Origin: a phage
DNA: 64,000 bases
Sequence record: PZ386961.1
Direction: 5' to 3' (one strand)
The notes beneath the pieces are model-generated. The model was not told the DNA's origin, searched no databases, and saw only the letters and a list, made by a program, of their open reading frames with translations. A program made the position numbers and the translations under genes. Below, in pieces: positions 17,221-51,243 of this stretch (its first letter is position 1; the number at the start of each line of letters is the position of its first letter).

Positions 17221-17367
17221 ATGTTCAGTACAGTCATTTTGTTTATACTGGTTGTCTTTGTATTGTCATACGTTGCAAGTAAGCTTTTGGACACATCTTT
17301 TGCAATGGGTGTCTTGTTTACAATCTTTTGTTTCGTGACGCATATAGCTATCAGAACTTTTTTATAA
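17221..17367 (+). CDS. small hydrophobic protein (48 aa), below ORF-track cutoff
   Basis: ATG 4 nt after ligase stop; predicted single-pass membrane peptide. Confidence 0.3.
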   Translation: MFSTVILFILVVFVLSYVASKLLDTSFAMGVLFTIFCFVTHIAIRTFL

Positions 17368-17373
17368 AAGTTG

Positions 17374-17401
17374 TTGACATAGAAAATTTGGTGAGTATAC
17401 T
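17374..17401 (+). promoter_or_regulatory. sigma70-like promoter TTGACA-N16-TATACT
   Basis: Hexamers read directly; lies immediately upstream of repeat element E1-A. Confidence 0.5.
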
Positions 17402-17434
17402 GAGCAGCATAAACCGACGGGTACTCACCAGCAT

Positions 17435-17581
17435 CACTTAAGAGTCTTTTAAAAGGGTTTTTAAGTGATGTCCGGTCGGGTGAGGTAGGGTTAAGTATTG
17501 TCCGGTACGGTAGGGTAAAGTACGGTACGGTAAGGTAAAGTAGGGTATGGGTAGTTAGTCTCAGCTACATTAAAATGAGAC
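17435..17581 (+). repeat. structured repeat element E1-A (header, NGGTN pentamer array, terminal hairpin); candidate ncRNA
   Basis: Header cacttaagagtcttttaaaagggtttttaagtga, ~80 nt of GGTAN-type pentamers, hairpin gtctca/tgagac with loop gctacattaaaa; paralog at 18987..19122. Confidence 0.6.
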
Positions 17582-17582
17582 T

Positions 17583-17715
17583 TACCTTTTTAAAAGGTCT
17601 TTAAAGAGGGTCTTTTAATGAGGTCTGGCGCGGTAGGGTCTGGTCTTGTCCGGTCGGGTATGGCATGGTGTTGTGAGGTATGGGTGGATGGTAGTAGCCA
17701 CGTTAAAAATCTACC
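17583..17715 (+). repeat. structured repeat element E2-A (header, G/T-rich array, terminal hairpin); candidate ncRNA
   Basis: Header ttttaaaaggtctttaaagagggtcttttaatgagg, G/T-rich tract, hairpin ggtag/ctacc with loop tagccacgttaaaaat; paralog at 18852..18986. Confidence 0.6.
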
Positions 17716-17773
17716 AAGTTTCTAAAGAGTCTTCTGTTGAGGGTTCTTTACAAACAACTTAACAATCAACTAA

Positions 17774-18379
<606 letters not shown>

Positions 18380-18381
18380 TT

Positions 18382-18822
18382 ATGAATACAAAAGCATTAG
18401 CAGCAAAGTTTAGTTACGGTGACACTGTATCACACTCTGAGATGGACACCTTCTTAGGTATTGTGAAGCCAACTTATCAAGGTGACATTGTTAAGTACGA
18501 AGATGAAATGAAGGCTTATGCGCTTACACGTCTAAACCGACTTGAGAAGTTTATTGAGAAGCTTCTTAAAGAAGAGAAGATTTATCTGGTTGCTTCAATG
18601 GGTGTTGGTTATCGTGTGGTTGAACCTAAGCATCAAGCAACTATTGCAAAACGCAAAATGTCTGGTAAGATTGGTCGTGCTTTAAAGCAAGCCACTCAAG
18701 CGATTGAGAATGTGAACACTATGGCACTTAGTCATCAAGAACGTTCACGACTGATTGAACAGCAAAATCACTTAGCTGCTATGAAAGCTAATATTAACAA
18801 GCAACGCAGAAAACCTTTCTAA
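18382..18822 (+). CDS. hypothetical protein (flanked by repeat elements)
   Basis: 146 aa from ATG 18382, coupled to upstream gene. Confidence 0.5.
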   Translation: MNTKALAAKFSYGDTVSHSEMDTFLGIVKPTYQGDIVKYEDEMKAYALTRLNRLEKFIEKLLKEEKIYLVASMGVGYRVVEPKHQATIAKRKMSGKIGRALKQATQAIENVNTMALSHQERSRLIEQQNHLAAMKANINKQRRKPF

Positions 18823-18833
18823 GTTGACTAGGT

Positions 18834-18856
18834 AGCCTCTTCGGAGGCTCCTTTTT
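18834..18856 (+). terminator. rho-independent terminator (agcctc-ttcg-gaggct plus T5)
   Basis: GC hairpin with ttcg loop and T-run just after stop at 18822. Confidence 0.6.
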
Positions 18857-18986
18857 AAAAGGTCTTTAAAGAAGGTCTTTTAATAAGGTAAGGCACGGTT
18901 ATGTCAGGTATGGTACGGTACGGTTAGGTAAGGTGAGGCGGAGTAAGGTATGGGTAGTTAATCGGAGCTACATTAAAATTCGATTA
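18852..18986 (+). repeat. structured repeat element E2-B; candidate ncRNA
   Basis: Header nearly identical to E2-A, NGGTN array, hairpin taatcg/cgatta with loop gagctacattaaaat. Confidence 0.6.
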
Positions 18987-19122
18987 CATCACTTAAGAGT
19001 CTTTTAAGAGGGTTTTTAAGTGAGGTGTGGCACGGTAATGTTAGGTAGGGTCAGGTCAGGTCAGGTGAGGTAAGGTAAGGTGATGTATGGAAGGATGGCA
19101 GTAGCCTTATAAAAAATCTGCC
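18987..19122 (+). repeat. structured repeat element E1-B; candidate ncRNA
   Basis: Header nearly identical to E1-A, CAGGT/AAGGT pentamer array, hairpin ggcag/ctgcc with loop tagccttataaaaaat. Confidence 0.6.
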
Positions 19123-19141
19123 AAATAAGCTATAAAATCTG

Positions 19142-19176
19142 TTGACAAGTCAGGTGTTATAGCTTATTTTTATACT
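19142..19176 (+). promoter_or_regulatory. sigma70-like promoter (TTGACA with TATTTT or TATACT -10)
   Basis: TTGACA at 19142-19147; -10 candidates at 17-nt and 23-nt spacing. Confidence 0.35.
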
Positions 19177-19214
19177 CAACGTAATACAAAATTTAATATA
19201 ACTTTGAGGTCATT

Positions 19215-47698: not shown

Positions 47699-47774
47699 TG
47701 GGGTGACCTACGGGATTTGAACCCGTATAGACCATGTTCACAGCATGGGTCATTACCATTTATGATAAGGCCAC
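47699..47774 (-). tRNA. tRNA-His (anticodon GUG)
   Basis: Manual fold: loop ctGTGaa, discriminator C, T-stem acggg/cccgt. Confidence 0.7.
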
Positions 47775-47805
47775 ATTTAAGGACTCTCGTAAGAATCCTT
47801 AGAAG

Positions 47806-47881
47806 TGGCAGCGGCATAAGGATTTGAACCTTAATAGGACAGCTTCAGAGACTGCTGCATTGCCAGTTATGCTATACCGCT
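47806..47881 (-). tRNA. tRNA-Gln (anticodon CUG)
   Basis: Manual fold: loop ctCTGaa, discriminator G, D-stem gcat/atgc. Confidence 0.65.
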
Positions 47882-49602: not shown

Positions 49603-49858
49603 ATTAAATCTTTTTAGAGAACTTCTAAGAACCTGAGCAACAAGGTTCCACAACAAGCGACTAATAACCTTAGAAGCCCTCTAAAAAGACCTAAATAGGT
49701 CTTTGCATAGTCTTGTTTAATCCGGTGACTAGAACCTTTGGAGAGCTTGATATTATCTCTTCTCCGTGACACCTACTAGGTGCTTTGACAGTGCACGACA
49801 ATACACGAGGGATAAACCGACAATGCGAACAAGCATGGACGGAGTAAATCTTATTAGG

Positions 49859-50261: not shown

Positions 50262-50463
50262 ATTAATCTTTAAAGACTCTCTTAGAAAGCCCTTAAAGAT
50301 GCCCACCTTATTAATCATACCGTGGGCGAGTACGCCAAATTCTTTGATGAGGGATTGGAAGACCTCACTGGTGTTTAGCCTATCAAGCTACTGCCAGAAA
50401 AACATTGTCGTTTGCATTTATTTTAAATTTGCAAAATAGACGCTACGCAACGAAAACTAAGGT

Positions 50464-51050: not shown

Positions 51051-51243
51051 TACCGGAGAAATAGATTGTTTAAAGTTTGCTGTAAACGGTCTTCTGTAAA
51101 TTTGTTGAGCCAGACCAAGTTTTAAATTTTCAAAATTAAATTGGCTTGAAATTTCATACATTCTTGCTGTATTTGGTCTTCTGCTCCTTTAAAGAATACT
51201 CGTAAGAACTCTTTAAGGGAGGGGCTAAATAGCCCTCTCAAAA

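Follow-up and report, generated by a model that had tools for sequence, protein, structure and literature searches.

Repeat elements bracketing a two-gene locus of a Felix O1-like phage are very probably the guide RNA genes of a type II VIPR system of the SUSP1 clade

Four related repeat elements bracket a pair of genes in the window, by which we mean the whole 64-kb stretch of phage DNA analysed here, and these elements are almost certainly vrRNA (guide RNA) genes of a type II VIPR system of the SUSP1 clade in a Felix O1-like phage. The system as such is already known, as it belongs to a clade that was characterised experimentally in preprints of 2026. VIPR (Viral Interference Programmable Repeat) is introduced there as a CRISPR-like RNA-guided DNA silencer (bioRxiv 10.64898/2026.04.26.720920 and 10.64898/2026.04.26.720927, hereafter the VIPR preprints). 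According to the text of these preprints, vrRNAs of ~100 nt carry 9-16 GGY/NN repeats, followed by a 3' tail that folds into a hairpin and a pseudoknot, each repeat is bound by one Vipr protomer with the GGY bases flipped out, and the NN dinucleotides read double-stranded DNA by base pairing that leaves out every third base of the target. The same text has binding produce an R-loop/triplex by which transcription is silenced, with competing mobile elements as targets, names satellite phage in E. coli chromosomes as the natural targets of the SUSP1 clade, and describes silencing as reprogrammable through the NN bases alone. Membership of the SUSP1 clade is defined by > 90% identity to SUSP1 Vipr, a minimal RAMP protein with RRM core, G-loop and thumb, and vrRNA genes are those that flank vipr and contain at least 4 (typically 9-16) tandem YNNGG/GGYNN repeats. 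In the window we found Vipr, flanking vrRNA genes with the GGY/NN pattern and the 3' tail, vap1, and guides that follow the skip rule.

The elements all lie on the + strand, two at 17432-17720 and two at 18850-19122, on either side of vipr and vap1 (Table 1), and the neighbouring ORFs encode a ligase and small hypothetical proteins. They share one plan: a 39-nt G.U-rich 5' hairpin (the head) is followed by 12-16 strict GGYNN pentamers and then by a 3' tail, which consists of a hairpin and a 4-bp pseudoknot that uses the NNNN of the hairpin loop. The preliminary description of 18852-19122 had recognised these tail hairpins, and all four stems were found exactly as quoted there, but it had taken the downstream pair of elements for a mirror copy of the upstream pair in swapped order. 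Mirror copy is a misnomer, as the copies are direct and each of the four units points the same way as the genes. A swapped order does exist for the two types of 5' hairpin (H1, H2 upstream and H2, H1 downstream), whereas the tail types follow each other as T1-like and T2-like on both sides. The view of the elements as structured repeats was right in so far as a structured RNA is concerned; the hairpin, however, is only a small part of each element and not its essence. The dominant feature, absent from that description, is the 5-nt GGYNN periodicity of the GGY/NN guide tract that forms the body of each element. A promoter scan found no strong promoter ahead of B1, and a terminator-like hairpin lies between vap1 and B1. 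Directly after vrRNA B2, a 19-nt inverted repeat (AAATAAGCTATAAAATCTG / CAGGTGTTATAGCTTATTT) at 19123-19170 overlaps a sigma-70-like promoter (TTGACA-17-TATTTT) and could be a terminator, an operator, or both.

Table 1. Positions in the window of the features assigned to the VIPR locus.
Feature	Positions	Strand	Remarks
Sigma-70-type promoter (TTGACA-16-TATACT), upstream of locus	17374..17401	+	11/12 consensus match; putative role
Head hairpin of vrRNA A1 (type H1)	17432..17470	+	18-bp; MFE -15.5, z -5.9; model R2 59.8 bits
vrRNA A1 guide tract, 16 GGYNN units	17469..17548	+	parsed in register from tail
vrRNA A1 3' tail	17549..17582	+	pseudoknot 17551-17554/17565-17568; hairpin 17557-17563/17576-17582
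A1 stem AGTCTCA / TGAGACT	17557-17563 / 17576-17582	+	quoted earlier as gtctca/tgagac, 17558-17563 / 17576-17581
Head hairpin of vrRNA A2 (type H2)	17585..17623	+	MFE -11.9; R2 60.4 bits
vrRNA A2 guide tract, 12 GGYNN units	17622..17681	+	
vrRNA A2 3' tail	17682..17715	+	pseudoknot 17684-17687/17698-17701; hairpin 17690-17694/17711-17715
A2 stem GGTAG / CTACC	17690-17694 / 17711-17715	+	quoted earlier as ggtag/ctacc, same positions
vipr gene, 195 aa RAMP protein	17792..18379	+	
vap1 accessory gene, 146 aa	18382..18822	+	
Intrinsic-terminator-like hairpin	18834..18849	+	U-tract running into B1 head
Head hairpin of vrRNA B1 (type H2)	18850..18888	+	MFE -11.9, z -3.3; R2 59.9 bits
vrRNA B1 guide tract, 13 GGYNN units	18887..18951	+	
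vrRNA B1 3' tail	18952..18986	+	pseudoknot 18954-18957/18968-18971; hairpin 18959-18966/18979-18986
B1 stem TTAATCGGA / TTCGATTA	18959-18966 / 18979-18986	+	quoted earlier as taatcg/cgatta, 18960-18965 / 18980-18985
Head hairpin of vrRNA B2 (type H1)	18987..19025	+	MFE -13.0, z -4.1; R2 59.8 bits
vrRNA B2 guide tract, 13 GGYNN units	19024..19088	+	
vrRNA B2 3' tail	19089..19122	+	pseudoknot 19091-19094/19105-19108; hairpin 19097-19101/19118-19122
B2 stem GGCAG / CTGCC	19097-19101 / 19118-19122	+	quoted earlier as ggcag/ctgcc, same positions

The identity of the system is given by its proteins. The product of the first gene is identical to PDB 36pp, 'SUSP1 Vipr protein', at 189 of 195 positions (97%; phmmer E 1.9e-126), and a profile of its family matches the same entry at E 2.3e-80. 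The published RNA-contact residues H17, K33, E71, M72, R138, C173, D177, W178 and R179 are all present and the G-loop is conserved; in the text of the VIPR preprints, pocket residues are assigned to G1, G2 and Y3, and K33 contacts the target-strand backbone beside the skipped base. The structural preprint places T175 in the Y3 pocket of SUSP1 Vipr, where both the 36pp chain and the window protein have V175 (…LCGVGDWR…); the mismatch probably reflects an error of numbering or typing on the side of the preprint. An AlphaFold (AF2) model of Vipr reached a pLDDT of 95, and its best Foldseek matches were Csm3/Cas7 RAMPs with a TM of about 0.5. The second protein, vap1, is identical at 145 of 146 positions (99%) to the product of the gene that follows vipr in the phiSUSP1 locus (L021). 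It corresponds to phrog_5926 and has no Pfam match; a search for homologues returned near-identical proteins only, and a BLASTP comparison with the second gene of a distant locus (L029) was not significant. For both proteins, searches of Pfam and PADLOC remained without a match, and the only PHROGs assignments were two families of unknown function.

The preliminary description had inferred selection on structure from stems that change in a compensatory manner around a fixed loop. A covariance model was built from the four 44-nt 3' ends of the window, and it found exactly four matches in the 64 kb, all on the + strand with E of about 1e-10, and 95 further matches in 22 related phage loci, all on the gene strand. 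In the resulting sample of 99 tails from 23 related phage loci, the structure of seven hairpin and four pseudoknot pairs was paired in 93% of cells (n=34 distinct sequences), as compared to 74% in column shuffles and 28-40% with slid partners, and both-sided changes occurred in nine of the 11 pairs. The pseudoknot was paired in 100% of cells, and three of its four pairs were compensatory. Covariation of the stems is therefore real, and the inference of selection was right, the hairpins belonging to the conserved tail at the 3' end of a functional RNA. The loop, on the other hand, is not fixed: loops follow the pattern AGC-NNNN-(T/A)TAAAA, and the NNNN covaries with four nucleotides upstream as a pseudoknot (GTAG/CTAC, GTGG/CCAC and AAGG/CCTT). 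Compensatory changes were kept when related phages were added, but nearly all of the variation is variation between four paralogous tail types, each of which the window contains, with a fifth type in a satellite, so that independent covariation events are few. Folding energy alone is unremarkable for the tails (z -0.7 to -1.2), and Rfam gave no match at E <= 1 within 17350-19200 and only tRNAs at the gathering threshold. A covariation figure and cryo-EM in the VIPR preprints, as far as their text conveys, also support the hairpin and pseudoknot.

The tail bears on the reading in which the hairpins punctuate the operon as rho-independent terminators or cis-regulatory structures and the repeats are non-functional, fast-evolving spacer DNA. 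We regard this reading as highly improbable. Like intrinsic terminators, the hairpins stand at the 3' end of a short transcript, the one of A1 is followed by a U-run (TTACCTTTTT), the record of Escherichia phage vB_EcoM_ASO1B annotates two 'terminators' inside the elements, and a genuine terminator-like site precedes B1. The tail stems, however, are short (5-8 bp) and AU-rich with loops of 12-16 nt, their folding z is only about -1, a consensus scan flagged none of the four, two of them (A2 and B2) lack a U-run, and the loop pairs upstream as a pseudoknot. Moreover, in the supposed spacer GGY recurs strictly every 5 nt between phages whose proteins are 37% identical, and its NN bases match satellite DNA.

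Arrays of GGY pentamers occur in the window at these four places only, always on the gene strand, with 16, 12, 13 and 13 units. Among the 99 guide tracts of the 23 loci 69 were unique: GGY is conserved among relatives while NN is hypervariable, N4 and N5 are near-uniform in composition, and Y3 is T in 91% and C in 9% of cases, conservation figures for G2 and Y3 being partly circular because the parse of the tracts required both. The guide tract is predicted to be unstructured. That the arrays act as DNA, either as iterons of a partition or replication protein or as packaging-related arrays like those by the terminal repeats of T7, is scarcely credible. Public records label the elements as direct repeats only ('DR_4' in wV8) or, in KhF3, as a 'possible binding site of StbAB', and Felixounavirus genomes have terminal repeats of about 600 bp (PMC4837284). 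Yet the arrays are strictly strand-asymmetric, with the coding strand G-rich in 99 of 99 cases, and the flanking head hairpins use many G.U pairs and score 50-60 bits on the + strand versus 20-32 on the - strand. Iterons should be conserved whereas the NN positions are hypervariable, profile searches of Pfam, PADLOC and PHROGs found no StbA/StbB-like protein, and the UAB_Phi87 record locates no genome end in this region.

A scan for DNA targets argues that the NN bases are guides. A satellite was located through tape-measure and baseplate genes that resemble the phage's own, and matches to these were present in as many as 477 of the 5,426 complete E. coli genomes. We compared 56 distinct guides from 23 Felixounavirus loci with five E. 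coli satellite variants, counting matches of at least 80% of NN positions. With a skip of one nucleotide, 28 of the 56 guides reached this threshold, 11 of them matching at 90% or more and up to 100%, as opposed to one guide with skip 0 and three each with skips 2 and 3. Flanking chromosomal DNA of similar size gave none with skips 0, 1 and 2 and two borderline cases with skip 3. All four guides of the window found satellite matches. B2 matched at 22 of 24 NN positions (0.92) in L030 12388-12423, within the small hypothetical CDS WP_001208714.1 (chance expectation in the scan 4e-6), where the skipped base falls on codon position 2 of the annotated frame and not on the wobble position. A1 matched at 25 of 30 (0.83) in a coding region, L030 10869-10913, with the skip at the wobble position (1e-5), and B1 at 20 of 24 (0.83) in an intergenic region, L033 5905-5940 (2e-3). 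The weakest of the four, A2, is marginal, with 18 of 22 (0.82) in a satellite baseplate gene, L034 13815-13847 (9e-3).

None of the four guides has a self-target, the best match elsewhere in their own 64-kb window being 0.71 or lower. A 94% skip-1 match of a foreign guide inside the window (17672-17698) was rejected as a GT-rich artefact overlapping a vrRNA gene. No perfect natural target was found in the five satellites scanned, full-guide exact scans of IMG/VR for B1 and B2 gave 0 matches, and a BLAST search of E. coli genomes with an 'ideal target', i.e. the satellite edited to match the guide perfectly, returned variants of the template only. The guides of five phages (the window, L007, L008, L013 and L018) converge on the same 39 bp of the E. 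coli O157:H7 satellite, L030 12385-12423. The satellite in E. coli GN4751 has a vrRNA gene of its own (L032 5881-6050, - strand) with a TTGACA...TAAGAT promoter and 12 GGYNN units; its tail is of the same family and represents a fifth stem variant (GTCG/CGAC) with a GTGG/CCAC pseudoknot, and no vipr gene is annotated in this element. This agrees with the statement in the text of the VIPR preprint that some satellites encode vrRNAs.

The trp RNA-binding protein TRAP is an oligomer that reads a triplet about every 5 nt (11 G/UAG triplets with spacers of 2-3 nt) on the unstructured RNA of the trp leader; it forms a closed 11-mer ring and acts in attenuation and in translation control of its own mRNA. 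VIPR shares with it the conserved triplet about every 5 nt on unstructured RNA, but in TRAP sites the spacers are uninformative, and TRAP and Vipr are unrelated proteins. We give almost no credence to the reading that the RNAs are TRAP-like protein sponges or assembly scaffolds, which titrate or organise the adjacent protein and have no guide function: the triplet with its 2-nt spacer and the predicted lack of structure in the tract would suit it, but a sponge does not need hypervariable NN positions, satellite matches specific to the 1-nt skip and absent at other skips and in flanking DNA would be unexpected, and the preprint text reports silencing that is reprogrammed by NN alone. GGU periodicity had also suggested Rho rut sites on the antisense strand, two-quartet G-quadruplexes and pairing with tRNA CCA ends; like the sponge, these ideas were dropped because the protein was identified and NN matches satellite DNA.

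The 5' head is a hairpin of 39 nt with 16-18 bp and a 3-nt loop, G.U-rich, with an MFE of -11.9 to -15.5 kcal/mol and z of -2.3 to -5.9. Compensatory pairs were found across 33 distinct heads, the changes lying between the two head types, and the G.U pairs, which underlie the strand-biased scores, mark the head as an RNA rather than a DNA feature. Such a hairpin precedes every vrRNA in the SUSP1 clade, and the text of the VIPR preprints, figures aside, yielded no description of it. From head end to tail end the units measure 97-117 nt, which fits the reported mature RNAs of ~100 nt; the head is thus probably removed or located upstream of the transcript start, and both a processing site and a part of a promoter are candidates. 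The vrRNAs would in the former case be released from a precursor. We tentatively propose, as a possible though rather unlikely explanation, that the head is an undescribed maturation signal, cut by a host double-strand or 5'-end-dependent RNase, that frees ~100-nt vrRNAs (and tRNAs) from long precursors. Head-like hairpins (TCTTTAAGGGCTTTC-TAA-GAGAGTCTTTAAAGA) are also present in the tRNA cluster, just ahead of tRNA genes, at 50267-50299, 47771-47808, 51184-51221 and 49670-49690, all on the - strand; one of them ends 5 nt before a tRNA 5' end, and they may represent a shared signal for small-RNA processing or expression. One head-like hairpin was seen in the satellites. A degenerate third head-like motif (CTAAAGAGTCTTCTGTTGAGGGTTCTTTACAAA) lies at 17717-17756, immediately before the vipr start; with 20-23 bits it is found at the same position in 23 of 23 related loci, and the ASO1B record has a promoter annotated at this place. 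The head motif as a general phage promoter was considered and rejected, as the full motif occurs at the VIPR locus only and the promoter scan raised no flag there.

The window comes from a Felix O1-like phage (Felixounavirus), and about 231 phage records match the region. Between phages the elements are 60-80% identical versus 90-95% for the flanking genes, and their number varies from one to three copies per side. Two matching records are labelled otherwise: GU169904.1, 'Staphylococcus phage SA1' (147 kb), has ~93% identity to this Felixounavirus region, and MG065668.1, 'Campylobacter phage A126', matches an element at 76%; both look mislabelled or chimeric. Farther away, metagenomic viral contigs encode the same two genes, with a first protein 36-40% identical, and the pentamer arrays around these, of GGT or GGC type, run on the same strand. 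As these distant contigs keep the arrays, the conserved feature is the pentamer array linked to the gene pair, and the clade-specific hairpins are secondary. The distant loci have GGC units in L025 and L026 and GGT units in L029, with arrays also between vipr and the second gene, and the arrays of all three end in a GGTTTTTT run just ahead of the next ribosome-binding site. No head or tail of SUSP1 type was detected in L025, L026 and L029.

Beyond the near-identity of Vipr and vap1, the locus has in common with the type II VIPR of SUSP1 the plan of head, GGYNN tract and tail, the four tail types, and the class of satellite addressed by the 1-nt skip rule. It differs in that SUSP1 has one vrRNA upstream and three downstream whereas the window has two on either side, in the NN guide sequences, and in six residues of Vipr. 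For SUSP1 itself, the text of the VIPR preprints reports RNA expression, ribonucleoprotein formation, DNA binding and silencing. Given a Vipr that is 97% identical, expression of the RNAs, their co-purification with Vipr, DNA binding and silencing would be expected in the window phage as well. Class 1 CRISPR-Cas backbones (Cas7/Csm3 on crRNA) share with VIPR the RAMP fold and a protein filament on a guide RNA, and in both, according to the preprint text, a thumb periodically breaks the guide-target duplex. In contrast, VIPR is phage-encoded and consists of two genes only, its guide information is 2 in 5 nt, and its target is read at 2 in 3 nt. It has no CRISPR array and no cas1/cas2, hence no spacer acquisition, and no repeat-spacer array with cas1/cas2 was found at the locus by ORF inspection, profile searches and Rfam.

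In the mechanism that we propose on the model of SUSP1, 18852-19122 would hold two of the four vrRNA genes, each giving an RNA of ~100 nt with 12-16 pentamers and a tail. A Vipr protomer on each repeat would sequester GGY, so that a helical filament presents the NN dinucleotides, and the tail hairpin and pseudoknot would cap its 3' end. The NN string would then base-pair with double-stranded DNA, passing over one base in three, and the resulting R-loop/triplex would repress transcription. The guides of the window would be aimed at the E. coli chromosomal satellite whose tape-measure and baseplate genes are relatives of those of the phage; this satellite presumably parasitises the phage, and we infer that it is the biological target of this particular phage.

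As a kind of system the locus is not new; its value lies in part in an independent reproduction, from sequence alone, of the anatomy and the 1-nt skip rule that had been published. Public annotation needs correcting, as vrRNA genes are now labelled 'DR_4', 'terminator' and 'StbAB binding site'. The 5' hairpin offers a concrete lead on how vrRNAs are made and, if it is a maturation signal, would mean vrRNA biogenesis without a Cas6-like enzyme. VIPR itself stands for phage-borne RNA-guided DNA silencing with two genes and a non-contiguous code, and a proposal exists that the effector proteins of CRISPR descend from it.
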